In this document: in pieces, positions 1 through 62,417 of the stretch
Numbering within the stretch: position 1 is the stretch's first letter
Layout: every line of letters starts with the position of its first letter
Assembly (NCBI GenBank): GCA_963806905.1
Contig: CAWEAA010000006.1
Location: 13,640-77,639 of the forward strand
Length of the DNA stretch: 64,000 nucleotides
Reading direction: 5' to 3'
Source: an uncultured Verrucomicrobiae bacterium
Lineage (GTDB): Bacteria > Verrucomicrobiota > Verrucomicrobiia > Limisphaerales > UBA11358
The notes under the pieces: generated by a model
What the model was told of the DNA's origin: nothing
Databases searched by the model: none
What the model saw: the letters and a program-made list of their open reading frames with translations, nothing else
Program-made: the position numbers and the translations under genes

Positions 1-63
1 GGCATTCATAAGTTTTGTCGAGCCTCACCAAGGCTACGCCTGTTCCGGGAAATAGTAAAGCGG

Positions 64-92
64 CAAAAAAGGCCGCGATTGGCGCGGCCTTT
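64..92 (-). terminator. Rho-independent terminator after pal
   Basis: Minus strand reads AAGGCCGCG-CCAAT-CGCGGCCTT followed by a T run. It lies 35 nt downstream of the pal stop. Confidence 0.75.
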
Positions 93-126
93 GAAGTCTT
101 TTGGCACGAGCGCGCGTTGTTAAAAT

Positions 127-726
127 TTACGACCCGGCCTTGGGATGCAGAAGCACGAAATCGTCCCGGCGGTTTTTGGCCCAGGCGGATTCGTCATGGC
201 CCGGATCCGCCGGCTTGTCCTTGCCGAAACTCCGGGTCTCGACCCGCATCGGGTCAACGCCCAGTTTGGCCAGCGCTTCGCGCGCCGCCAGCGCACGGCG
301 TTCGCCGAGCGACCGGTTGTATTCCTCGGTGCCGCGCTCGTCGCAATTGCCCTCGATGAGCAGCTTGGCGCTCGGATCGGAACTCAATGCCTGGGCCACC
401 GCAGCCAGGTTCGCCTTTTCGCTGTTCCGGATTACGGAGCTGTCGTAAGCGAAATGAATCGTGTCCGCCGCCAGCGCCGCGCGGTCGGCTACCATGTTAT
501 CAAACTCTTCCGGCGGGGGCAGTGCCATCGGATTGCTATTTGGGTTTTCATTCGGATTAATCGGCTGAGTGTTTGGCAAAGTGGGGCCGGGTCCCGGCTC
601 GCCAACTTGGGGGGCTGGCCCTGGCAGTTGCGTGACGCCAACCGGCTTATGTGAGTGGCAACCCGTCGTGGCGAGAGTGGCGGCCAGCGCGAGCACCAGT
701 GGAAAAATCAGTTTTGTCGTTTTCAT
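127..726 (-). CDS. pal: Peptidoglycan-associated lipoprotein (OmpA family)
   Basis: 199 aa. Signal peptide with lipobox LATTGC, Pro/Asn-rich linker, C-terminal OmpA-like domain (NCDERGTEEYNRSLGERRA). Last gene of the tolQ-R-A-B-pal order. Confidence 0.9.
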   Translation of the reverse strand: MKTTKLIFPLVLALAATLATTGCHSHKPVGVTQLPGPAPQVGEPGPGPTLPNTQPINPNENPNSNPMALPPPEEFDNMVADRAALAADTIHFAYDSSVIRNSEKANLAAVAQALSSDPSAKLLIEGNCDERGTEEYNRSLGERRALAAREALAKLGVDPMRVETRSFGKDKPADPGHDESAWAKNRRDDFVLLHPKAGS

Positions 727-4094: not shown

Positions 4095-6251
4095 ATGTCC
4101 CGCCTGCGTGGCCGAAGCCAGAACCGCGAAAGCCAGGAAACCTGCCCGGCAGGCGCCGGTGCGGCTTTCCGACACAATCCCTTCCGCCGTCGCCAAGGCT
4201 ATGGCGGACAGGTCGGCGCGGCGAAGGCCCGCCCACGCCTTATCGGTTTGTTGCTCGCGCTGGTCACACTGCTGGTTTATCTGCCGGTGTGCCGCTGCAA
4301 CTTTCTGGTCTATGACGACGACGATTACGTCACCGGGAATCAGGTTGTCCAAAACGGCCTGACCTGGGCCGGCGTCGAATGGGCCTTCACGACTGCACAT
4401 GCGAGCAACTGGCATCCGCTCACCTGGCTTTCGCACATGCTGGATTGCGAATTGTTCGGGTTGAACCCCGGCGCGCAGCATCTGGTCAACGTCCTGTTCC
4501 ATGCAGCCAATGTGGTTTTACTTTTCGCGCTGCTGCGCCGACTGACGAATACGTTGTGGCCAGGCGCGTTCGTTGCCGCGCTGTTCGCATGGCATCCGCT
4601 GCACGTCGAATCCGTCGCCTGGATTTCGGAACGCAAGGACGTGTTGAGCACGTTCTTCGGGCTGCTGACCCTGCTGGCTTATGTGCGCTATGCACAACGT
4701 GTGACAGGTGACAAGTGGCAAGTGACAAGAACCGGCGAACAAGACATGTCACGTGTCATGTGTCACGTGTCACCGTTTTATTGGCTGGCACTGATTTTCT
4801 TCGCGCTCGGTTTGATGTCCAAACCGATGCTCGTCACGCTGCCGTTTGTTATGTTGCTGCTCGACTTCTGGCCGCTCAAGAGAGTGACAGGTGACAAGTG
4901 GCAGGTGGCAGGGGTTCTGCGATTGGTCTTGGAGAAGTGGCCGTTCTTTCTGCTCACCCTCATTTCCTGCATTGTCACTTTTCTGGCGCAGCGACATGGA
5001 GATGCAGTGGTCTCGCTGGCAAAAGTTTCGTTGCGCTATCGCCTGGAAAACGCGCCGGTCGCCGCTGTGCGCTACCTGCTGAAAATGATCTGGCCGGCCG
5101 ATCTCGTCGTCATTTATCCGATGCCGGACAAGATTCCCGTGTTTGCCATCGCAGCCGCAGTTGCGGTTTTGATTTTCCCTTCCCTCGCTGTCTGGCTGGC
5201 ACGGCGGCGCTGGCCGTATTTGCTCGTCGGCTGGCTGTGGTTTTTGGGCACACTCGTGCCGGTCATCGGCCTGGTGCAGGTCGGCGGCGCGGCGCTGGCC
5301 GACCGTTACACTTACCTTCCTTCCATCGGCCTGTTCCTCGCTGTCGCGTTCGGCTTCCGCGAATTGGCAGCGCGCTTTCAATTTCCTCCCATTGCTGTGG
5401 TCGCTGCTGCGGTTTTAATTTTGGGCGGCTGCCTTTTGGCCACGGAGCATCAGTTGCGTTTTTGGCGCAACAGCGAAACGCTCTTTCGCCACGCGCTCGC
5501 CGTGACCCGGGACAACGACATCGCGCATGCCAATCTCGGCGTGGCACTGGAACAGGAGGGGAAACCGGATGAAGCGCTGGCCGAATACCGCGCCGCCGCG
5601 AAGCTCGCGCCAGGGCGCTACCAAACCCACAACAACCTCGGCAACCTGCTCGATAAAATCGGCCGGCCGGAGCAGGCGCTGGCCGAATATCACGAAGCCG
5701 TCCGGCTGAATCCGGAACTGCCGTCTTTGCACGACGGCCTCGGCAGCGTGCTCGCCGAACTCGGCCGGTTCAGCGAAGCCATGAATGAATTTACCAACGC
5801 GGCGCAACTCGACCGCACCTATCCCTGGCCGCATTTTGAAGCGGGCAAAACGCTGCTGAAACAAGGCCGCGATGCCGAAGCAATGGATCAGTTCCACGCG
5901 GCGCTGCGGATTGCCCCGGACAATTTTCAAATCCTTGCCTACACCGCCCATGTGCTGGCCGCCGCCGAAAATCCTGGAATTCGCGACGGGAAAACCGCGC
6001 TTGTGTTCGCGACCGAGGCCAACGCGCTGACCGGCGGCACGCAACCGTTCGTCCTCGACGCGCTGGGCATGGCCTTCGCGGAAACCGGCGATTTCACCAA
6101 CGCGCTGGACGTCACGCAAAAGGCCCTTGATCTCGCCATTACCGCCAAAATGAAAAACCTCGAAGGCATCCAACAACGGCTGCAACTCTACAAAAACCAC
6201 CAGCCGTGGCGGGAATCGTTCTTGTTTACCAACGCGCCGGCGAAAAATTAA
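4095..6251 (+). CDS. Polytopic GT-C/PMT-like membrane protein with C-terminal TPR repeats
   Basis: ORF opens at 4023 and the first ATG is at 4095, so the start is uncertain. YDDDDYV motif after TM1, about 10 TM segments, then multiple TPR units (AEYRAAAKLAPGRYQTHNNLGNLL, AEYHEAVRLNPELP ...). Carries two in-frame repeat insertions. Confidence 0.7.
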   Translation: MSRLRGRSQNRESQETCPAGAGAAFRHNPFRRRQGYGGQVGAAKARPRLIGLLLALVTLLVYLPVCRCNFLVYDDDDYVTGNQVVQNGLTWAGVEWAFTTAHASNWHPLTWLSHMLDCELFGLNPGAQHLVNVLFHAANVVLLFALLRRLTNTLWPGAFVAALFAWHPLHVESVAWISERKDVLSTFFGLLTLLAYVRYAQRVTGDKWQVTRTGEQDMSRVMCHVSPFYWLALIFFALGLMSKPMLVTLPFVMLLLDFWPLKRVTGDKWQVAGVLRLVLEKWPFFLLTLISCIVTFLAQRHGDAVVSLAKVSLRYRLENAPVAAVRYLLKMIWPADLVVIYPMPDKIPVFAIAAAVAVLIFPSLAVWLARRRWPYLLVGWLWFLGTLVPVIGLVQVGGAALADRYTYLPSIGLFLAVAFGFRELAARFQFPPIAVVAAAVLILGGCLLATEHQLRFWRNSETLFRHALAVTRDNDIAHANLGVALEQEGKPDEALAEYRAAAKLAPGRYQTHNNLGNLLDKIGRPEQALAEYHEAVRLNPELPSLHDGLGSVLAELGRFSEAMNEFTNAAQLDRTYPWPHFEAGKTLLKQGRDAEAMDQFHAALRIAPDNFQILAYTAHVLAAAENPGIRDGKTALVFATEANALTGGTQPFVLDALGMAFAETGDFTNALDVTQKALDLAITAKMKNLEGIQQRLQLYKNHQPWRESFLFTNAPAKN
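4701..4773. repeat. In-frame imperfect inverted repeat (GTGACAGGTGACAAGTGGCA family) inside the PMT/TPR gene
   Basis: Left arm 4701-4727 is gtgacaggtgacaagtggcaagtgaca and right arm 4747-4773 is tgtcacgtgtcatgtgtcacgtgtcac (22/27 complementary by hand). Translated as VTGDKWQVTRTGEQDMSRVMCHV. Confidence 0.85.
4884..4910. repeat. Solo arm of the GTGACAGGTGACAAGTGGCA repeat, in frame
   Basis: gtgacaggtgacaagtggcaggtggca is near-identical to 4701-4727. It is again translated VTGDKWQV. No inverted partner follows. Confidence 0.85.
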
Positions 6252-8442: not shown

Positions 8443-10215
8443 ATGCACAGCACCATGAAACGTTTCAGTGTCGTTTTGATTGTTTTCTCCCTGGCCCTGG
8501 CCGCGCAGGCGCAGACGGACACGAATGCGGCCACCGTGCCAGCCGAGACCAACGCACCGGCACTCCAACCGGAGGCCAATACGGTCGCCGTCCAAACAAA
8601 TTCAAACCCGGCCGCCACGCAAACGGACACGAACGCGGCCCCCACGCCGGTCGAAACCAACGCACCCGCCCCGCCTCCCGGGACCAATGCGACCGCCGGC
8701 ACGACCAACACCCCCTTGAGCTACCAGTGGCTGTTCAACGGTACCAAGGCGCAGACGAACGCGACCGCCGGCACAATCAACACCAATGGCCGCGCGATGT
8801 CGTTGAAGGACTGTATCCAGGAAGCCCTCCAGCACAACCTCGACGTGCAGATTGAGCGCTACAATCCGCAAATCCAGCGATACAATTTGAGCGCGGCCTA
8901 CAGCGGTTACGATCCGTTGCTCAACATTTCCGGCCAGCACGATTACGACGTGAGTGGCAGTGTCTTTCAAAATGGGTTTGAATTGCCCGGTTCCATTTCC
9001 GATGAGAACAAATTTAATTCCGATATCGGCGGCACACTGCCGATGGGGTTGCAGTATGATTTCAGCGGGAACGTCAATCAGCAATATGGCACACTAAATC
9101 CAGGGACGACCAACGCCTCGCCCTTTGAAAGCTCTTCGGGTCAGATTCAAGTTCAATTGAAGCAACCGCTGTTGAAGAATTTCTGGATAGACACCACGCG
9201 TCTTAACATTCGCGTTGCCAAGAACCGCTTGAAATATTCCGAGCAGGGCCTGCGGCAGCAAATCATAAACTCGGTCACCGCCGTTGAGAATGCCTACTAC
9301 GAACTCATTTACGCGCTGGAAAACGTAACGGTGCAGCAGGAGGCGCTGGTGCTCGCCCAGACGCAGCTTGACCAGGACAACCAGCGCGTGCAAATCGGCA
9401 CGCTTGCCATCTTGAGTGTCCAGCAGGATGAATCCCAGGTGGCGCAGAGCCAGGCCAATCTGATTGCCGCACAATTTACTCTGGTCACCGACCAAAATAC
9501 GTTGAAGAACCTACTCGCGGACACGAACTACACCCGATGGCACGATACGGACATTCAGCCGCTGGAGACGCTCACCGCGCCCGTGCAAACTTACAATTTG
9601 CAGGACAGTTGGCGGAAGGGCATGACCGAACGACCGGACCTCTTGCAGGCGCAATTGAATGTGGAGCAGCAGGGCATCCAGTTAAAGTATTACCGCAACC
9701 AGCTTTTTCCCGAACTCGATTTGACCGGCACCTACGGTTACAACGGCTCAGGCACGCAATTCAGCGACGAATTCAACCAGTTCAACGAAGGCAACCGGCC
9801 ATTTTACAGCTACGGCGCGCAAATGACGATTCCGCTCAGCAATGTCGGCCCGCGCAATCAATACAAGTCCAACAAGGCAACGTTGCAACAAGTCACGCTG
9901 CAACTGAAACAACTCGAACAAAACGTTTTGGTGGAAATCGATAATGCGGTGAAGCAGGCCCAATCCAACTTCCAAAGCGTGGAGGCCACGAAACAGGCGC
10001 GCATTTACGCCGAGGCCGCGCTGGACGCGGAGCAGAAAACCTACGCTGTCGGCAAGGCCACCACCTTTGAAGTGCTGCAATATCAAAACAGCCTCACCGC
10101 CGCGCGCTCGCAGGAAATTCGCGCGCTGGCCAATTACAACGAGGCGCTCGTCAATCTCGCCGCGCAGGAAGGCAGCACGCTCGAACGCAACAACATCAAC
10201 ATCGAGGCGAAGTAA
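8443..10215 (+). CDS. TolC-family outer membrane efflux protein with low-complexity N-terminal extension
   Basis: ORF opens at TTG 8416, with ATGs at 8443 and 8455. Signal peptide MKRFSVVLIVFSLALAAQA, about 110 aa of Thr/Asn/Ala/Pro-rich sequence, then TolC-type repeats (LKDCIQEALQHNLDVQ ...). Confidence 0.8.
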   Translation: MHSTMKRFSVVLIVFSLALAAQAQTDTNAATVPAETNAPALQPEANTVAVQTNSNPAATQTDTNAAPTPVETNAPAPPPGTNATAGTTNTPLSYQWLFNGTKAQTNATAGTINTNGRAMSLKDCIQEALQHNLDVQIERYNPQIQRYNLSAAYSGYDPLLNISGQHDYDVSGSVFQNGFELPGSISDENKFNSDIGGTLPMGLQYDFSGNVNQQYGTLNPGTTNASPFESSSGQIQVQLKQPLLKNFWIDTTRLNIRVAKNRLKYSEQGLRQQIINSVTAVENAYYELIYALENVTVQQEALVLAQTQLDQDNQRVQIGTLAILSVQQDESQVAQSQANLIAAQFTLVTDQNTLKNLLADTNYTRWHDTDIQPLETLTAPVQTYNLQDSWRKGMTERPDLLQAQLNVEQQGIQLKYYRNQLFPELDLTGTYGYNGSGTQFSDEFNQFNEGNRPFYSYGAQMTIPLSNVGPRNQYKSNKATLQQVTLQLKQLEQNVLVEIDNAVKQAQSNFQSVEATKQARIYAEAALDAEQKTYAVGKATTFEVLQYQNSLTAARSQEIRALANYNEALVNLAAQEGSTLERNNINIEAK

Positions 10216-10303: not shown

Positions 10304-11011
10304 TTACCAGAACTGCCACGCGTGCTTCCAGACAATCCACAAGCCCAGCAATAAATTCGTGATGGCGTGCGCCGTCATCGCATCGCCCAGCCGGTTTTTG
10401 CGCAGCACCAGCCATTGATACGCCGCGCCGCACAAAATGCCCGCCAGCCATTCGTTGTGGGAAAAGCCGAAGACGGCCGCAGTCGCAAAAAATGGCAGCG
10501 GCAAAAATTGATTGAGCGGCACGGATTGGAAATCTGGTTTGGCGATGCAGCGATAGAGAAACGAGCGGTAAAAAGCCTCCTCCAGCGGCGGCACAACAAA
10601 TGTTGAACCAAGAATCCGCGTGGCGATCATCAGCCAAGCCAGCGCTGGGCTGTTGCCAAATTGTTCGTTCGGGTTCCAAAACTTGGGCGAGCTTGCCGGC
10701 GGATGCGTAATGCCGAGTTTCACCCAAAGCGAGGTTTGCGTCGTCCATTCGCCGCTGATGCCAACCCAAATCGCAAAGATTCCAATGCCGACGACGGCGG
10801 CTTCCCAACTGAAGGCCCAGCGCATTTCCGCCACGAACGGGCGCATTTCCCATATCAGCCACACACCGACCAGTGTCTTGGCGAAGTAAAACCAATAAGC
10901 TGACGCCGGGCCGAATTTCCCCTGGCAAAACGTCAGCGCGAAGAAAACTACAAATGGCGCGACCCGGGCGGTGGCCGGCGACACGGCAAATTGTTTTTTC
11001 AGGCAGCGCAC
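10304..11011 (-). CDS. CPBP (CAAX-type) intramembrane glutamic endopeptidase family protein
   Basis: 235 aa, GTG start, multi-TM. Carries the EEAFYRSFLY (EExxxR), FSHNEW and HAITNLLLG motifs. Confidence 0.75.
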   Translation of the reverse strand: MRCLKKQFAVSPATARVAPFVVFFALTFCQGKFGPASAYWFYFAKTLVGVWLIWEMRPFVAEMRWAFSWEAAVVGIGIFAIWVGISGEWTTQTSLWVKLGITHPPASSPKFWNPNEQFGNSPALAWLMIATRILGSTFVVPPLEEAFYRSFLYRCIAKPDFQSVPLNQFLPLPFFATAAVFGFSHNEWLAGILCGAAYQWLVLRKNRLGDAMTAHAITNLLLGLWIVWKHAWQFW

Positions 11012-11032
11012 ACGAAATGATGACGCGGATTT

Positions 11033-11542
11033 TTACTTGTCCAATCCTAATTTCTCCTGCGAACCGTCGGCTTTTTCCAGCGTGACGTTGTGTTGCGAGA
11101 TTTCCTTCACGCGGAATTCGCCAAACCGGTCGCCGACATGAACGGTCTTGCCGTCCACGATCGCCCACGGCTGTGTCGCGGTATAGACAATGCCCTGCAA
11201 CTTCGGTTCGGGCGGCGGCGGCGGCGGTGTTGGCGGTGGTGATGTTGACGGTGGTGGCAGCGGCGCGTTGGGTACGGGAATGGGCGCCGGGTTCACCGGT
11301 TGCGCCGCCGTAAGCCTGGGTTCACGGCGGGTTTTTGTCACGGTGCGGGTGACGAGGGCCATTCCGATAAAAAGGCACGCAGCCACAATCAAAAAACCAA
11401 TCACCCCCGGTAATATCCAGCCGATGACGTTGCCAGGCCTGGATTCAACCGGCAGCAACCTTGGCACTTTTGTGTCGGGCGGCGGCTGGTTTGTTTTCTG
11501 CGCCCGCTGGGCGCGTTTGAGCGCGTCGTTGATGCGGCTCAT
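11033..11542 (-). CDS. GspB/ExeB-like protein
   Basis: 169 aa. MSRINDALKRAQ N-terminus, one TM, a Pro-rich linker and a C-terminal beta domain (LQGIVYTATQPWAIVDGKTVHVGD). ATGA overlap with the upstream exeA-like gene. Confidence 0.55.
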   Translation of the reverse strand: MSRINDALKRAQRAQKTNQPPPDTKVPRLLPVESRPGNVIGWILPGVIGFLIVAACLFIGMALVTRTVTKTRREPRLTAAQPVNPAPIPVPNAPLPPPSTSPPPTPPPPPPEPKLQGIVYTATQPWAIVDGKTVHVGDRFGEFRVKEISQHNVTLEKADGSQEKLGLDK

Positions 11543-14590: not shown

Positions 14591-15184
14591 TCAATCGAGA
14601 GAAGGCAATCGGCGCCGTCTTTCTATTTCTTTTGAAACACATTTCTCACAAACACCATAAATCTGATCGGAATAGCATTCGGTCGCCAAAGGCGTGTCTG
14701 CATCAGCGTGAGAACAACGGCTGTTTGGAGTGTAACTTCTGAAAACTACAATACCGTCGCAAGCGGTTTTCTGTTGCAATGCCAAAGCAACACGCTTCAT
14801 ACACGATTCGCAAAACCAAAACAGCTTTGCATCCGGTGGTCTTTCTGCTTTACGACACAAGCAACAACGCAATGTTCTACGGATGCCATCCAATTCCTTC
14901 ACATAGGGCTGTCGTTTCGGAAATGCCAAACAATCCCCAAGCAAATCGTCCATCTTCCACGACGTTTCTTGGGACAGAAGAGCGATTCGAGAAACAATAT
15001 CCATTTTGCGTCTAACGAGTTCAGTGTGAATTATACAAACTTCACGATTGTGTTGTTTCACGCGCTGGCCATTCGGAAGATCGTTATCACAAACTCCAAC
15101 GTGCCGAAGTTCCAAGCAAAGTTCATCCAATAAGTCTAAGTCTGAACGCTCTTGAATCGGTGGTTTCGGTGGCGTGTTGGCCAT
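14591..15184 (-). CDS. Cys-rich protein with zinc-ribbon motif, unknown function (low GC)
   Basis: 197 aa. C-x2-C-x14-C-x2-C (CCLCRKAERPPDAKLFWFCESC) plus a second Cys/His cluster (CSH..C..CEKC). Spot GC of 42-43% versus about 60% in flanking genes. Lies 21 nt after the hisD stop. Confidence 0.6.
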   Translation of the reverse strand: MANTPPKPPIQERSDLDLLDELCLELRHVGVCDNDLPNGQRVKQHNREVCIIHTELVRRKMDIVSRIALLSQETSWKMDDLLGDCLAFPKRQPYVKELDGIRRTLRCCLCRKAERPPDAKLFWFCESCMKRVALALQQKTACDGIVVFRSYTPNSRCSHADADTPLATECYSDQIYGVCEKCVSKEIERRRRLPSLD

Positions 15185-43056: not shown

Positions 43057-43728
43057 ATGGCTGCTGAATACGATACAACCGAATTTGTGGACACCGATTT
43101 TCAAACCCAGAAATCGCCTTACGGAAACCCCGCGCCGGCCGGCGATCCGCTCCGCGCGCCCACGCGCGAGGAGGTGGACCGCAAGGTCGTCGAGGCGCAG
43201 CAAAAGCTCGCCGAACTCAAACGCGCGCAGGAGGGTTTGGAACGCGAACGCGCCGCGCTCGAGGAATTGCGCCGCCGCCAGAATGAATTTCAGACCGGCC
43301 GGCAGGAAATGGTGCACAGCCTCACCCGCGGCCTCGGCCTGCTCGAAGAAGCCGAGTTCAACGCCCGCCGCGACGCCGAGCAAATGGTCAAGACCGTCGC
43401 CGATTTCCGCGACGCCCTCGACAAAATCCAGGGCATCCATGAGGAAACCTGGAACAAGGATAATTTCAGTGTCGAACTCACGCGCGGACTGACCACCATC
43501 GAAAACGCGCGCATGGAATGGAACGCCGCGCGGCTCAAGTTTCCCATCCTGTCCGGCGAAACCCCGGCCAACCCGGAAACCGAAAGCGCGCCGCCGCCTG
43601 CCGCATCACCCTTCGCCACGCACAGCTTCGGCGAGCTGTGCAAGTTCGGCCTGGCGCTGACGTGGCCGCTGGCGCTCGTCGCGTTGCTCGCGCTGGGTTT
43701 GATGCTGGCCGTTTTGTTGCGTCACTGA
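43057..43728 (+). CDS. Hypothetical coiled-coil protein with C-terminal TM anchor
   Basis: 223 aa. Charged heptad-like region (EEVDRKVVEAQQKLAELKRAQEGLERERAALEELRRRQ) and a C-terminal TM (LALTWPLALVALLALGLMLAVLL). Confidence 0.5.
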   Translation: MAAEYDTTEFVDTDFQTQKSPYGNPAPAGDPLRAPTREEVDRKVVEAQQKLAELKRAQEGLERERAALEELRRRQNEFQTGRQEMVHSLTRGLGLLEEAEFNARRDAEQMVKTVADFRDALDKIQGIHEETWNKDNFSVELTRGLTTIENARMEWNAARLKFPILSGETPANPETESAPPPAASPFATHSFGELCKFGLALTWPLALVALLALGLMLAVLLRH

Positions 43729-43741
43729 AAGTTGAAGTCGT

Positions 43742-44260
43742 ATGGCGTTCGCGAAAAAAAAGGCGAAAACGGTTGACCCGATTTCCGACCGCGCACGCAC
43801 CTTGAACGGCCAGATCGCCGCGCTCGAAGCCGAAATCAAAAGGCTCGACACCGAAATTCAGCACAATCCCGCGCCGCGCCTGCGTTCCACCGCCATTCCG
43901 CATGGCGCGACCATTGACCGCACCCACGAACTGCCGCCGTCCCCGCCTGTGCAGGAACCGGTCTTTGAAGAGGTCAAACCGCTCCCGGCCAGCGACGAGA
44001 CTGACGCGCCCGACCAGTTCAACGAGCTCGGCGTGCGCAAATACGATCTGCCCGCGCTCCTCCATCGCCTGCGCAAGCGTTTCAGCCGGCCGACGGCTTC
44101 CAACCCGCGGCTCGTCACCTACTTGGCCGCTGGTGGCGTGCGCGGCTTGCGCCCGTTGCGTTACGAAAAACGCGTGGCGCGGAACCGGTTTATTCTTTTC
44201 GCCGGCGGCCTGTTCCTGCTTCTGCTCGGCACCATCCTGGTCTATCTGCACAACCATTGA
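43742..44260 (+). CDS. Hypothetical coiled-coil protein with C-terminal TM anchor
   Basis: 172 aa. A short coiled coil (LNGQIAALEAEIKRLDTEI) and a C-terminal TM (FILFAGGLFLLLLGTILVYL). Confidence 0.5.
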   Translation: MAFAKKKAKTVDPISDRARTLNGQIAALEAEIKRLDTEIQHNPAPRLRSTAIPHGATIDRTHELPPSPPVQEPVFEEVKPLPASDETDAPDQFNELGVRKYDLPALLHRLRKRFSRPTASNPRLVTYLAAGGVRGLRPLRYEKRVARNRFILFAGGLFLLLLGTILVYLHNH

Positions 44261-44791: not shown

Positions 44792-44799
44792 TTCCGCAT

Positions 44800-45303
44800 T
44801 TATTTTCCGCGAGCAATATCAATCTGCTGCTGGATGTGTTGATCCAAATGCATAGCAGATTCCGATAGAATATTTCTTATCGCCTCAGTTTGATCCATGA
44901 AGTTCTTATAAAGCATCAGCGCCTTGTGTGGGTCGGTCTCCTTCCGAAGCGAACTGAACCGCCGCTTCCAGCTTGGAATAGGATCTTTCCGATGCTTCCA
45001 GTCGTAGTTATCTTTTATCCATTGAACGTAAGCTCCGACTGTCTTAGCAGCACATTTATTTTCATGCGCAAATGCCTTTCCCTTTTCGGTAAAAGCAAAA
45101 GCCCAAGCCTGAGAATCAATGATAACCTGCTCTCTCGTCCTTGTGACGGGGCCGTCATCCGCCAAAAACTGGATGTTGTGATCTGTTTCTTCGACCGCTG
45201 ACTCAACATGGTCGGCCAAAGTTTTTGGAAGATTCAGCCCGAGGCCTTCGGAAACTTCACGCAGACGCTTACAAGCTAGCGCAAACAATTCAGGGAGCTT
45301 CAC
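44800..45303 (-). CDS. Hypothetical protein, low-GC cassette gene 2
   Basis: 167 aa. The GTG start lies 14 nt inside the upstream ORF. No recognisable motif. AT-rich relative to neighbours. Confidence 0.55.
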   Translation of the reverse strand: MKLPELFALACKRLREVSEGLGLNLPKTLADHVESAVEETDHNIQFLADDGPVTRTREQVIIDSQAWAFAFTEKGKAFAHENKCAAKTVGAYVQWIKDNYDWKHRKDPIPSWKRRFSSLRKETDPHKALMLYKNFMDQTEAIRNILSESAMHLDQHIQQQIDIARGK

Positions 45304-45790
45304 GAACGGGTTTGCCTAAATATTTCTTGGCCCGATGGGGCATGGTGTTCCGGCTTCCCCACGAATAAACCAGCGGCTTATATTGCTCCAAAATGTCGCA
45401 CGCATTCTGAAAGTAAAAGAGTGAAATAGCTGGCAGAATATTCTCGTGAGCGATTCCACGATGATAGACCTCATTTCTGAATGAATGGAGAATGACGATT
45501 GTGTCCTTGACGGTCTTGGAGATGAAACCTGTTTCGGCTGCAAGTTTGGCCTTGTCATCAAAGTTCTGCCCCATTGCTGCTGCGACCAGCTTGGGTGGAT
45601 ACTTTGGTTTCAGCATTCTTCCCCACATTTCATTAGCGGATGATTTGTCGGAAGCATATTGGTGCAGCGTCAGCTCCACCACATTGTCGACAAGCATCAG
45701 GGTGAACCGTTTGTAGTTCACATCATTGACGGCTAACTGGTCTAATGCCAGATCCATCTGCTCGACAACATTGGCGAGGAACTGCGTCAT
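45290..45790 (-). CDS. Hypothetical helical protein with HEPN-like RNxxxH motif, low-GC cassette gene 1
   Basis: 166 aa from the ATG at 45790, which overlaps the epimerase stop (ATGA); the ORF is open to 45850. Carries the motif ILHSFRNEVYHRGIAHE (R-x4-H). Confidence 0.55.
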   Translation of the reverse strand: MTQFLANVVEQMDLALDQLAVNDVNYKRFTLMLVDNVVELTLHQYASDKSSANEMWGRMLKPKYPPKLVAAAMGQNFDDKAKLAAETGFISKTVKDTIVILHSFRNEVYHRGIAHENILPAISLFYFQNACDILEQYKPLVYSWGSRNTMPHRAKKYLGKPVREAP

Positions 45791-46770
45791 GGATTTGTCA
45801 GCCGGATGATATCGCGCAACGGCGTGCGCGGGCGGAACTTCACGAAGCATTCGAGTTTTTTCACCAGCGGCTTGCGCCGCCGCATGTCGTCAAAAGTCGG
45901 CACGCCGCTGACGCCGTAGCCCGTGGACGAAACCGGATACGCCTTGTCATACGGCACGATTTGAATCTTCGATTTTGAGCCGAGGGTTTTGACTACCAGC
46001 CGCGCCAGTTCGAGGATGCTGATTTCCTCAGTGCCGCCGACGTTAAAAATTTCACCGCGCGCCTTCGGACAATTTTGCAGGCGCACCAATGCTTCCACCG
46101 CGTCGCGCACATGGCAAAAACACCGCGTCTGCCTGCCGTTGCCAAAGACTTTCAGCGGTTCGTTCTTTTTCGCCGCCGCGATGAAGCGGGGCAACACCAT
46201 GCCGTAACGCCCGGTCTGGCGCGGCCCGACGGTGTTGAACAGCCGCGCGATGGTGACGGGCAGGTTTTTTTCCCGCGCGTAGGCAAGCGCGAGGAATTCG
46301 TCAGTCAGCTTCGAGCACGCGTAACTCCAGCGTGACTGGCCGGGCGGGCCGATGAGCAAATCGTCGTCCTCGCCGAACGCCGGCTTCGCGCTCTTGCCGT
46401 AAACCTCCGAGGTCGAGGTCAGCAGGAGCGGCGTGCGGTTCGCGGCGGCGGCACGCAGCAAAATCTGTGTTTCGTGGAAGCTTGCTTCCAGAACGTGCAG
46501 CGCCGATTTGACCACGAGTTCAACGCCCACGGTCGCCGCCAGATGAAAAATAAATTCCGCATTTGCGGCCAGTTTTGGCAATTCGGCACACGTGGAAATT
46601 CTGGATTTGACGATTCGCAGCCGTAGATTCGATTTCACCGCCGCAAGATTTTCCAGCCGGCCGGTCGAGAGATCGTCAATGACGACGACGCGTCTGCCGT
46701 CGTTGAGCAGTCGTTCAACTAAATGCGATCCAATAAATCCAGCCCCACCTGTGATAAGGATATATTTCAT
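45787..46770 (-). CDS. NAD-dependent sugar epimerase/dehydratase
   Basis: 327 aa with the Rossmann motif ILITGGAGFIGSHL and a YxxxK context (WSYACSKL). Confidence 0.88.
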   Translation of the reverse strand: MKYILITGGAGFIGSHLVERLLNDGRRVVVIDDLSTGRLENLAAVKSNLRLRIVKSRISTCAELPKLAANAEFIFHLAATVGVELVVKSALHVLEASFHETQILLRAAAANRTPLLLTSTSEVYGKSAKPAFGEDDDLLIGPPGQSRWSYACSKLTDEFLALAYAREKNLPVTIARLFNTVGPRQTGRYGMVLPRFIAAAKKNEPLKVFGNGRQTRCFCHVRDAVEALVRLQNCPKARGEIFNVGGTEEISILELARLVVKTLGSKSKIQIVPYDKAYPVSSTGYGVSGVPTFDDMRRRKPLVKKLECFVKFRPRTPLRDIIRLTNP

Positions 46771-48745: not shown

Positions 48746-49257
48746 ATATGAAAAACGGGAAACGCTCAACATTCAACATTCAACATTCAACTCCCAAGGA
48801 TTCGGAGGCGAAGGTTTGGAAATTCAATGAAGGCGCAGGAGGAAATCGAAAGTTTGATCTGGAAGACCGGTTGCTGGAATTCGCCTCGGCAATCATTGAC
48901 CTATCCGAAATGCTTCCGGCCACACGCACGGGCAACCATGTGGCGGGGCAAATTTTGCGTTCCGGCACTTCGCCTTATCCCAATCACGGTGAAGCTGAAG
49001 CGGCCGAGTCTCGTGACGACTTTATTCACAAATTGAAGATCTGTCTCAAGGAATTGCGCGAAACCCGTCGCTGGGCAAGGCTGATCAAGCGGAAAGCCTG
49101 GGTGAAAAATGAAACTACACTCCTGTTTGTGCTGGGTGAGTGTGAAGAATTGATCCGCATCTTTCACTCGAGCATCCAGACCGCAAAGCGACATGCGCAG
49201 ACCGAACCGCCGCGGACGGCAGTTCCGTTGCGTCATTTTCCCAGCGCCACCGGCTGA
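48742..49257 (+). CDS. Four-helix-bundle protein (23S rRNA intervening-sequence protein / Avd-like family)
   Basis: 171 aa if started at the ATG overlapping the ubiX stop (ATGA). Family-like core: GQILRSGTSPYPNHGEAEAAESRDDFIHKLKICLKELRETRRW. The first 18 codons cross the repeat arm, so the start is uncertain. Confidence 0.7.
   Translation: MNMKNGKRSTFNIQHSTPKDSEAKVWKFNEGAGGNRKFDLEDRLLEFASAIIDLSEMLPATRTGNHVAGQILRSGTSPYPNHGEAEAAESRDDFIHKLKICLKELRETRRWARLIKRKAWVKNETTLLFVLGECEELIRIFHSSIQTAKRHAQTEPPRTAVPLRHFPSATG
48757..48795. repeat. aacattc-heptad repeat, left arm of a split hairpin
   Basis: Sequence gggaaacgctcaacattcaacattcaacattcaactccc. Its partner arm lies 463 nt downstream. Confidence 0.85.
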
Positions 49258-60926: not shown

Positions 60927-62417
60927 TTATTGTTTTGACTGCACCCCCGCCGGAGAAAGCACGGTGTTTGAATCGGCAGGTTTCAGGCAGGTTGGCGGTT
61001 CCAGTCCTTCGAGATATGCCTGATATGCTTTCGGGGCCTGGTCCGCCAGGCTGTTGGTGAGGGCTGCCAATTCATCCGGCAAAACCCAGCCATCCCCAAA
61101 ATACATTTTGAAGCAGGAATCCGCCAGTGCCTTGTTTTGTTGTGAAGCCGGCATTTTCTCCAAAACCGAATGAGCGAATTCTAACCCGACATCAATCCGT
61201 TCCTTGTTCAAATCAATTTTTATGACGGTCGCTTGCGGATCAATGTTGTAAACATCAGCCAGAATTTCATTGCGAGTGTCTTCATCTTTTTCCCACAGGG
61301 CTTGAATCATCTCCGGCACGGCAACTTTTGCGGGGGCACCCATTTCGGCCAGATGTTTCGCCGCAATCAACGTTTGATTCGGCTCTTTCAAAGCGGCACG
61401 CAAATCATCCAGCGTGTATGAACCGGATTTCCATTTTTCCGCCCACAGCTCCTCATGCTTTTGTTCTTTCAATGCTTGAGCCACTTCGGGAATTTGCGAA
61501 CCCAACGCCGGCGCAATTTTGGCGACGAGTTGATAAGTGTAACCTTCGTCCGGCAATTTGGCGAAATCCAATAAGTCAGGAGCAAGGAATTGTGCCGCTG
61601 GACCGGCGTCTCCAAGAATTCCCGCCGCCAGCATTTTGTAATATTCATTGAGGCCGTTGTTTGGGCGTTGGAAAAGCGCATGCAAGGCGGAGAAAATTTT
61701 TGGATTACCTGCGCTTGCACTTTTGACCAATGCCAGCGCCGCGCGAAATTGCGTGTTAGGATTGGAATCGTCCAGCAGATTTTCAACGGAAGAAAGATAA
61801 GGTTTTGCAGCGATGGAATTGCTTTCAACGAGTTCGGAAATGGTTTCAGGAACTTTTTTGGTCAAAATATTTCGATCGCAAGCCGGCGAGGAAATTAATT
61901 CGGCCAGAGCCGGAATGTCCTGCGCTTGGAAACCAATTTTTTTGAGAGCGGCAAACGCCATCGAACGATCAATATACTTTCTTGATGGAGAATAAATGAC
62001 ATCCCAAAGAAACGGCTCGATTTCAGGAACCGGTTTGCCCAATTGACCCATTCCATAAAGCGCGCCTGCGCGAACGAAATTGTTGGTGTCAATCCTCCTG
62101 CCGGCATTAACGAGCATATTCGTCTCGTTGCTGGCTTCTTTGAGAACGGCAAAGGCCGTTTCGCGATTGTTACCAAATTCCTGAATCGCTTCGTCTATTT
62201 TAGACGAGTCAAACATCCGGTGAGAGTTTGGGGGTCTTGTGTGCAAGGCGGTTTGCAAGTCCGCCTGTGCCCGGCGAGTTGAACAGCCGGCGCAAAGTCC
62301 GGCACAGACCAAAATCAAACCGGCAAATCCACCGAGCCCCGTCGCCCGGTTTTTTACAGAGGGCAAATGTGAGAACATTCGCATTGCGGACGATACATCT
62401 TTTATTTCAGCAATCAA
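60927..62417 (-). CDS. HEAT/ARM-like repeat lipoprotein, unknown function
   Basis: 496 aa. Signal peptide plus CAGCS lipobox-like site and repeated helical pairs (..RAALALVKS.., ..LAAGILGDAGP..). Confidence 0.55.
   Translation of the reverse strand: MIAEIKDVSSAMRMFSHLPSVKNRATGLGGFAGLILVCAGLCAGCSTRRAQADLQTALHTRPPNSHRMFDSSKIDEAIQEFGNNRETAFAVLKEASNETNMLVNAGRRIDTNNFVRAGALYGMGQLGKPVPEIEPFLWDVIYSPSRKYIDRSMAFAALKKIGFQAQDIPALAELISSPACDRNILTKKVPETISELVESNSIAAKPYLSSVENLLDDSNPNTQFRAALALVKSASAGNPKIFSALHALFQRPNNGLNEYYKMLAAGILGDAGPAAQFLAPDLLDFAKLPDEGYTYQLVAKIAPALGSQIPEVAQALKEQKHEELWAEKWKSGSYTLDDLRAALKEPNQTLIAAKHLAEMGAPAKVAVPEMIQALWEKDEDTRNEILADVYNIDPQATVIKIDLNKERIDVGLEFAHSVLEKMPASQQNKALADSCFKMYFGDGWVLPDELAALTNSLADQAPKAYQAYLEGLEPPTCLKPADSNTVLSPAGVQSKQ

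Follow-up and report, generated by a model that had tools for sequence, protein, structure and literature searches.

A frameshifted gene in a Verrucomicrobiae contig belongs to a mobile, single-gene family of predicted two-domain HEPN proteins

The stretch of DNA analysed here comes from an uncultured Verrucomicrobiae bacterium (contig CAWEAA010000006.1, positions 13,640 to 77,639; 64,000 nucleotides (nt), hereafter the window). On its minus strand, at 44800-45790, two overlapping open reading frames (ORF1 and ORF2) lie between a sugar epimerase gene and ogt. A first-pass annotation of the window had taken them for a translationally coupled two-gene cassette, in which a HEPN-like protein was accompanied by an unknown partner. 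We find that this segment is one gene, not two, coding for a two-domain, all-helical protein of 330 amino acids (aa), and that what had been taken for a partner forms the C-terminal domain of this one protein. On balance we favour the reading that the gene belongs to an uncharacterised family of mobile two-domain HEPN proteins, of which an intact member would be a self-contained RNase effector, and that the window copy is broken. A false lead is thus removed: there is no new two-component toxin/immunity system here but one broken gene.

One gene interrupted by a two-nucleotide deletion

The ORF coordinates of the first-pass annotation, its GTG start for ORF2 and its ATGA overlap (45787-45790) between the start codon of ORF1 and the TGA of the epimerase gene are all present in the sequence (Table 1). 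It is the relatives (designated below L for loci and P for proteins) that show how the two frames belong together. Homologues of ORF1 (24 proteins, all 'hypothetical') run in-frame into ORF2-like sequence (P0001, P0002, P0003, P0011). P0001, which is 94% identical, reads across the junction as '...KYLGANPFVKLPELFALACKRLREVSEGL...', and P0028, retrieved with ORF2, covers the end of ORF1 and all of ORF2. In the DNA alignment, L001 (93% identical) and L002 (88%) have TTAGGGGCAAACCC where the window has TTAGGCAAACCC, that is, 2 nt of a G run are deleted in the window relative to both. Restoring these 2 nt gives the 330-aa protein. ORF2 therefore lies in the +1 frame of ORF1 because of this deletion, and the 3' end of ORF1 consists of eight out-of-frame codons followed by TGA. 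ORF2 corresponds to residues ~165-330 of the intact protein and retains the conserved W230, W265, D270-P271, W275 and R278 as well as the long terminal helix. The overlap of the two ORFs, once read as tight translational coupling, is a by-product of the frameshift.

The ratio of nonsynonymous to synonymous substitution rates (dN/dS) between the window copy and L001, calculated in the repaired frame, is 0.136 (0.11 for the N-terminal half and 0.16 for the C-terminal half), showing that, until very recently, the two halves evolved as a single coding sequence. The copy in the window has probably lost its function; at best, it is a version split not long ago. L001, a metagenome contig, carries a separate 1-nt insertion in an A run, ~30 codons past the site of the window's lesion, while L002 is intact at both sites.

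The same organisation holds across the family. A scan of species-representative genomes (one genome per species) gave 30 loci, one locus in each genome with the gene. A toxin-antitoxin or toxin-immunity pair is made of separate, neighbouring genes; here a single intact ORF of 323-336 aa is found in 25 of these 30 loci, and the other five are each disrupted differently, by a 2.4-kb insertion (L027), a frameshift (L028), a stop codon (L025) or truncation (L029, L032). Seven disruptions were counted among the copies examined: those of the window, L001, L025, L027, L028, L029 and one Streptomyces plasmid. We also noted P0029 (119 aa, on an 11.9-kb JGI contig), whose last 70 residues match the family C-terminus (83% identical) and whose first 49 are unrelated, which suggests another disrupted copy, possibly via an insertion element.

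A lesion of this kind could have arisen in the data and not in the organism, where the gene would then be intact; this would weigh against a broken copy, and we consider such a homopolymer sequencing or assembly error unlikely, though it deserves the most serious attention among the alternatives. It would account for the position of the lesion within a G run, for dN/dS values without relaxed selection and for the indel that the metagenome contig L001 has in an A run of its own. On the other hand, the rest of the window, with many intact ORFs of 400-900 aa and a coding density of 95%, is without indel-prone signs, so that an indel-rich assembly is unlikely; the loss of 2 nt from a 4-nt run is an unusual error; and independent disruptions are common in finished genomes, as shown by L027, L028, and the stops of L025 and the Streptomyces plasmid copy.

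A true two-gene toxin/immunity or toxin-antitoxin module, with ORF1 as a HEPN toxin and ORF2 as its translationally coupled partner, is far less probable than an error in the data. The overlapping ORFs do exist in the window, termination-reinitiation might in principle yield ORF2 from its GTG start, and L001 and the Streptomyces plasmid copy are also split. Yet the splits lie at different positions (aa ~160 in the window, ~190 in L001 and ~45 in Streptomyces), as independent lesions would; the family is overwhelmingly one ORF, no conserved two-ORF clade was seen, and purifying selection acts on both halves in the single repaired frame. The separate immunity or antitoxin gene that had been expected is not conserved beside any family member examined. 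Scarcely credible, finally, is the production of the full-length protein, with ~8 altered linker residues, by ribosomes that shift frame by +1 at the terminal CCC_UGA of ORF1: a slip on CCC in GCT CCC TGA A, with the stop codon in the A site, would indeed re-enter at ...ELFALACK, and the affected linker is variable across the family, but CCCTGA is inherited, corresponding to the in-frame CTC CCT GAA of intact relatives, so it is not an evolved signal, and it is preceded by no stimulatory Shine-Dalgarno-like element, while unstimulated +1 shifting is usually inefficient.

Table 1. Features of the split gene and its borders (window coordinates)
Feature	Position	Strand	Description
HEPN-family gene	44800-45790	minus	Single gene interrupted by a frameshift; defined by the relatives' reading frame and by dN/dS over both halves
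ORF1	45290-45790	minus	166 aa; complete predicted N-terminal HEPN-fold domain (aa 1-~140) and linker
ORF2	44800-45303	minus	167 aa; GTG start 14 nt within ORF1; C-terminal all-alpha domain
Frameshift site	45315-45316	minus	GG in the window, GGGG in L001 and L002
R105-N-E-V-Y-H110 codons	45461-45478	minus	Rx4H motif, at the C-terminal end of the third core helix
CCC_TGA	45290-45295	minus	End of ORF1; a +1 slip would re-enter the ORF2 frame (speculative)
Epimerase/dehydratase gene	45787-46770		SDR-type, sugar; upstream of ORF1
Left junction	45797-45799	minus	Similarity to L036 ends at 45797, similarity to L001 (unrelated context) starts at 45799; GAC shared
Right junction	44792-44799	minus	8 nt between the TAA of the gene and the ogt stop; ~52-nt hairpin of L036 gone

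A predicted HEPN domain fused to a constant C-terminal domain

The N-terminal half of the protein is predicted to have the HEPN fold with an invariant R-N-x-x-Y-H motif. ORF1 contains ILHSFRNEVYHRGIAHE, and the RNEVYH motif reported in the first-pass annotation lies where it had been placed (Table 1). The AlphaFold2 model of an intact homologue (predicted local distance difference test score, pLDDT, 90.7; predicted template modelling score, pTM, 0.86) has 14 helices and no strands, in line with the earlier impression of an all-helical protein, and the N-terminal domain of the window's ORF1 was modelled with a pLDDT of 87.8. Core helices span residues 2-20, 24-59, 92-111 and 116-136, with small helices (66-86) inserted between the second and the third. 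The motif R105-H110 ends helix 92-111, and the invariant D35, N36 and E39 sit in helix 24-59. HEPN domains have been described as carrying an Rx4-6H motif at the end of helix 3, a conserved acidic residue in helix 2 and an insert between helices 2 and 3 (PMC3710099). The anatomy of the family fits this description through the position of its motif and the insert between helices 2 and 3, and D35/E39 in helix 2 may be the counterpart of the acidic residue, which is expected to lie near the motif.

Foldseek searches of the Protein Data Bank (PDB) with the N-terminal domain point in the same direction. The top 21 matches are all HEPN proteins, with probabilities of 0.75-1.00 (at least 0.94 in 19 of the 21) and template modelling (TM) scores to the target of up to 0.69. 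They include HepT of MntA-HepT (6m6w, 7bxo, 6m6u, 5yep), other HEPN toxins (8xdj, 8yuf, 8xeh) and HEPN/DUF86 proteins (1wwp, 1wty, 1ylm). Searched as a whole, the full-length model gave similar local matches (1wwp, HepT, MtlR) and none for the C-terminal domain. At the sequence level, sub-threshold similarity to DUF4145 (PF13643), which PMC3710099 and Pfam count among the HEPN families, was seen in 6 of 37 members (best E 0.019, 15.5 bits); its gathering cut-off of 23.1 bits was not reached by any member tested. In the three members checked individually, residues 72-111/113, which form the RNxxYH helix, align with profile positions 32-71/73. Thus, the HEPN-like character first proposed for ORF1 gains support from the fold matches, from the position and invariance of the motif, and from sub-threshold DUF4145 similarity lying on the motif itself.

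The motif residues are kept over long distances. All 26 full-length homologues compared have R105, N106, Y109 and H110, and the complete set of invariant residues comprises Q11, D13, D17, Q18, D35, N36, E39, H102, R105, N106, Y109, H110, G112, Y126, R153, K156, Y157, P271 and W275. Actinobacterial plasmid homologues, at ~23% identity, retain LHKYRNEMYH together with a C-terminal QIDFARGK (hhalign probability 99.6%), and Streptomyces homologues (23% identity) keep the R, N, Y and H of the motif.

For the C-terminal domain (~aa 160-330), no match was found by sequence or by fold. The possibility that it is a second, degenerate HEPN domain was rejected, hhalign giving a probability of 0.8%. A profile comparison with PDB sequences weakly links the long terminal helix (residues 287-330; ~44800-44931 in the window) to residues 3-46 of 'p26' (8h2j/8ixz; E 0.24), the Acb2 anti-CBASS sponge; we treated this link as probable chance similarity between helices.

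As a family, these proteins are numerous and uniform. A profile search returned at least 293 proteins, nearly all of exactly 330 aa and without Pfam domain or informative name. An exhaustive hidden Markov model search extended this to 936 clusters (50% identity) at E 0.001 or better, with a constant architecture and no domain fusions in the best 150. There are thus some 900 clusters in at least nine phyla, all labelled 'hypothetical'. The 30 genome loci span Binatia, Gamma-, Beta-, Alpha- and Deltaproteobacteria, Cyanobacteria, Chlorobi, Planctomycetes, Myxococcota, Gemmatimonadota and Acidobacteria. Neither half of the window protein matches Pfam, NCBIfam or PADLOC, as the lack of a named family in the first-pass annotation had announced; in PHROGs, ORF1 has no match and ORF2 only non-significant ones (best E 0.017). 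PADLOC-DB v2, searched with the halves, the repaired protein and six intact homologues, gave no credible match; a type I methyltransferase model alone was matched, by P0084 and without significance (E 0.015, 11.7 bits). The family was not found by tblastn in 50,697 phage records, and the BFVD library of viral structures gave no fold match. The family is therefore undescribed in Pfam, NCBIfam and PADLOC, and the 'undescribed type' that had been announced holds for the family and not for a two-component system. It can now be described as a family of predicted HEPN-domain proteins with a constant and novel C-terminal domain, whose members move as single genes and often lie beside defence systems and in integron arrays; a seed alignment is available to curators.

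A one-gene slot and several vehicles

The gene is foreign to its present surroundings. The G+C content is 0.473 in its segment but 0.577 in the window as a whole, 0.580 in the epimerase gene and 0.588 in ogt; this segment is the lowest-G+C 1-kb stretch in the 64 kb (z = -3.4). Moreover, 80 metagenomic loci (JGI contigs), whose samples read as peat and soil, share the order amidase, epimerase, convergent ogt and two conserved unknown genes, and the HEPN-like gene is absent from all 80. Both the low G+C and the foreign origin claimed in the first-pass annotation are thereby upheld.

The nearest insert-free relative, L036 (amidase 98% identical, epimerase 93%), allows the borders of the insert to be traced. 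The two sequences are collinear as far as position 45797 of the window (...CCGGCTGAC). Past this point L036 has six more epimerase codons (TAESKPV, then stop) and a ~52-nt hairpin before the ogt stop, whereas the window reads AAATCC-ATG... into the gene. This comparison shows that a 1.0-kb insert replaced the last six codons of the epimerase gene and the terminator hairpin, so that the epimerase stop now comes from the insert, which accounts for the ATGA 'coupling'. Short strings are common to both sides of the comparison at each junction (GAC at the left one, AAATAA at the right one) and are compatible with microhomology-mediated recombination, without proving it. No room is left for a promoter upstream of the gene's ATG, and transcription would presumably come from epimerase read-through.

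Other lineage members carry other cargo at the same place. In 59 relatives, the length of the epimerase-ogt gap (44792-45800 in the window; L036-L115 compared) varies between 8 and 1,396 nt. Some 37 of these gaps hold a single small gene, unrelated between loci and mostly co-directional with ogt; by eye, these genes resemble GNAT, ankyrin, Macro, glycosyltransferase, thioredoxin and RCC1 proteins, lipoproteins and membrane proteins. In L068, L076, L083, L091, L098 and L114, a second partial epimerase 3' end (aa ~285-325) follows the full gene. The gap is a hypervariable one-gene slot and the insertion in the window is recent. This slot offers a natural example of cargo swapping between convergent housekeeping genes in a peat and soil bacterial lineage. 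Beside ogt, two plus-strand ORFs of 223 and 172 aa (43057-43728 and 43742-44260), without Pfam match, are kept in most of the 80 syntenic loci at 60-100% identity and form a lineage-specific conserved pair.

Elsewhere in the family, the unit that moves is also the gene itself. Nucleotide similarity between copies in unrelated hosts ends within ~25 nt of the ORF ends (-9 to 0 beyond the ORF for the window and L001; -15 to +11 for L017 and L018, 89% identical; -16 to +26 for L007 and L010, 80% identical). In 22 of 25 loci the gene has a lower G+C than its flanks, with a mean difference of 8.4 points, and the family is present on 31 plasmids. No recurrent neighbour family was found among the 116 flanking proteins of the 30 loci (genes at most two positions away), nor any conserved sequence, small ORF or non-coding element in the flanks within 500 nt. 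A conserved partner gene, small ORF or non-coding element was consequently rejected after this 30-locus comparison. The gene is a horizontally mobile single-gene module without partner. It is not an insertion sequence or transposase gene, a candidate rejected in view of the single locus per genome (30 genomes), the lack of terminal repeats and the predicted HEPN fold.

Integrons are one vehicle among several. In Marinobacter pelagius (L027; NZ_QNRO01000006.1, 1-20297), the family gene lies within a chromosomal integron: an IntI-like gene at the start of the locus (15-692 (-)) codes for a protein 45% identical to IntI1, and there are five repeats of 77 nt whose ends read RYYYAAC...GTTRRRY, one of them 5 nt past the stop codon of the gene. 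attC repeats at about 4171, 5555, 13439 and 17352 accompany a run of same-strand ORFs of ~100 aa. It is here that the 2.4-kb insertion, which codes for a 521-aa ORF, breaks the family cassette. In Halomonas olivaria (L008), an attC (9909-9986), 93% identical to that of L027, ends 15 nt before the ATG, and attC-like sites abut the gene in L005, L007, L008 and L010. With a strict attC pattern, 4 of 31 loci were positive, compared with 0.9% of control positions; two cruder scans missed true sites, and their rates in controls (7% of control windows in one of them) were comparable to the matches that they found. The integron cassette as general vehicle was rejected, strict attC being limited to these 4 of 31 loci and absent from the window. 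The window copy has neither attC nor intI, and only 8 nt separate the stop codon of the gene from that of ogt.

Several other arrangements were seen along the way. In the Pusillimonas metagenome-assembled genome (MAG) L010, direct repeats of ~336 nt (5135-5470 and 11091-11427; 92-96% identical) flank a 6-kb segment with the family gene and may be the ends of an integrated element. L004 has three copies (947-1007, 5376-5436, 11011-11071) of a 61-nt palindromic repeat (GGGTCAGAGAACAATT...AATTGTTCTCTGACCC), one of them 15 nt past the stop codon of the family gene; without AAC/GTT ends, this repeat is not of the attC type. In the Chlorobiaceae MAG L012, a fragment resembling the C-terminal catalytic box of tyrosine recombinases (9701-9802), 53% identical to aa 284-317 of IntI1, lies 200 nt upstream of the family gene. 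In the window itself, two further low-G+C minus-strand ORFs may be additional foreign genes: 14591-15184 (197 aa, G+C 0.46, no Pfam match) and 60927-62417 (496 aa, G+C 0.49, HEAT repeats). At 48754-49257 (+), directly past a UbiX-like flavoprotein gene, there is a gene for a four-helix-bundle '23S rRNA-intervening sequence protein' (PF05635).

Proposed function and relation to known systems

HEPN domains are typically metal-independent endoribonucleases, usually dimeric. The intact protein would act as a self-contained HEPN endoribonuclease effector. The C-terminal domain would hold the effector inactive or sense a trigger, such as phage infection or loss of the mobile element; once activated, the enzyme would cleave the RNA of the cell and so halt growth, in the manner of abortive infection or addiction. 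A role in abortive infection, defence or addiction is suggested by the analogy with stand-alone HEPN proteins, including integron-borne ones, and by the defence-rich neighbourhoods of the family. Among the 116 neighbours, matches to defence models are numerous and include LmuB/LmuC (Lamassu), ThsB, PycC, AriA, Old, mad3 (MADS) and methyltransferases, as well as PDC-S11/S39/S47, HEC-08 and DUF3644. Other neighbours are Abi_alpha, ABC-3C MC4, Phd, integrases and a DDE transposase. Plasmid copies are surrounded by small hypothetical genes, with genes for partition, conjugation and SOS polymerases close by.

The more ambitious proposal, that the family is a new single-polypeptide system directed against phages or mobile elements, combining a HEPN RNase with a new C-terminal sensor or autoinhibitor and carried as a promoterless cassette in integrons, plasmids and variable slots, is in our view tentative, and we would give it perhaps one chance where the broader reading deserves nearly two. 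If it is true, the frequent independent disruptions would reflect a cost of carriage.

Several points weigh against the RNase effector reading. The E-values of the Foldseek matches are weak (0.04-0.7), and no sequence profile was significant against PDB or Pfam. The RNase activity and the defence role are deduced from fold, motif and neighbourhood. A toxin without partner requires self-inhibition, which is here hypothetical. Many neighbours are housekeeping genes, so the link to defence islands is not general, and neither is the link to integrons, about 25 of the 31 loci having no attC.

A protein of HEPN-like fold could also be a non-catalytic regulator that binds a ligand or a protein, as MtlR does, or an anti-defence or maintenance factor of plasmids and cassettes. 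MtlR is indeed among the fold matches, plasmid copies have the neighbours just mentioned, the family is absent from PADLOC, and many chromosomal neighbours are housekeeping genes. However, from Proteobacteria to Actinobacteria neither the motif's R, N, Y and H nor the acidic residues of helix 2 vary, a pattern typical of catalytic HEPN domains (PMC3710099), and known defence genes are frequent among the immediate neighbours. We therefore hold a non-catalytic role to be improbable, somewhat more so than an assembly error in the window. The family of putative RNase effectors is a testable candidate for defence catalogues, and a reasonable one since single-gene integron HEPN cassettes have recently been shown to protect against phages.

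The closest known structures are the HepT/DUF86 toxins and the MNT-HEPN (MntA-HepT) type II/VII modules (5yep, 6m6w, 7bxo, 8xdj, 7ae6), which are the best structural matches to the N-terminal domain (probability ~1.0, TM to target 0.57-0.69). Common to HepT and the family are the four-helix HEPN core and, at the same position near residue ~100, a motif of the R-N-x-x-x-H type. There is, however, no detectable sequence similarity between them; the tyrosine lies inside the motif of the family (RNxxYH) and after the histidine in HepT, and the family has an extra, invariably fused C-terminal domain of ~170 aa. Unlike MntA-HepT, it is accompanied by no MNT nucleotidyltransferase antitoxin or other conserved neighbour among the 116 flanking proteins of the 30 loci. 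DUF4145, in which fusions to restriction or helicase modules are frequent, is alone among Pfam families in being matched repeatedly, although this match is sub-threshold and covers only ~40 residues, and the family is free of restriction endonuclease or helicase fusions in the best 150 clusters.

In concept and in vehicle, the family resembles the single-gene HEPN defence cassettes of chromosomal integrons (Esos, Taranis/Abi_C, AbiU2-HEPN) and the 'integron cassette HEPN' family (3jrt). Integron HEPN cassettes give abortive-type phage defence in Vibrio (bioRxiv 10.1101/2024.07.02.601686, 10.64898/2026.03.17.712381), and an integron HEPN family had been listed before (PMC3710099). No homology to these cassettes was demonstrated for the family described here, which has no Abi_C or AbiU2 match in Pfam and for which 3jrt lies outside the top 50 fold matches. 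In contrast to them, most of its copies, that of the window included, are not beside attC.

The proposed mechanism is closest to that of CapRel-type fused toxin-antitoxin or sensor-effector proteins, in which one polypeptide carries an N-terminal toxic enzyme and a C-terminal domain that keeps the toxin off until triggered. The enzyme fold is unrelated, and for our family autoinhibition and the sensing of a phage protein are hypothetical. The analogy is thus mechanistic only, but it would explain how a toxin without partner can be tolerated.

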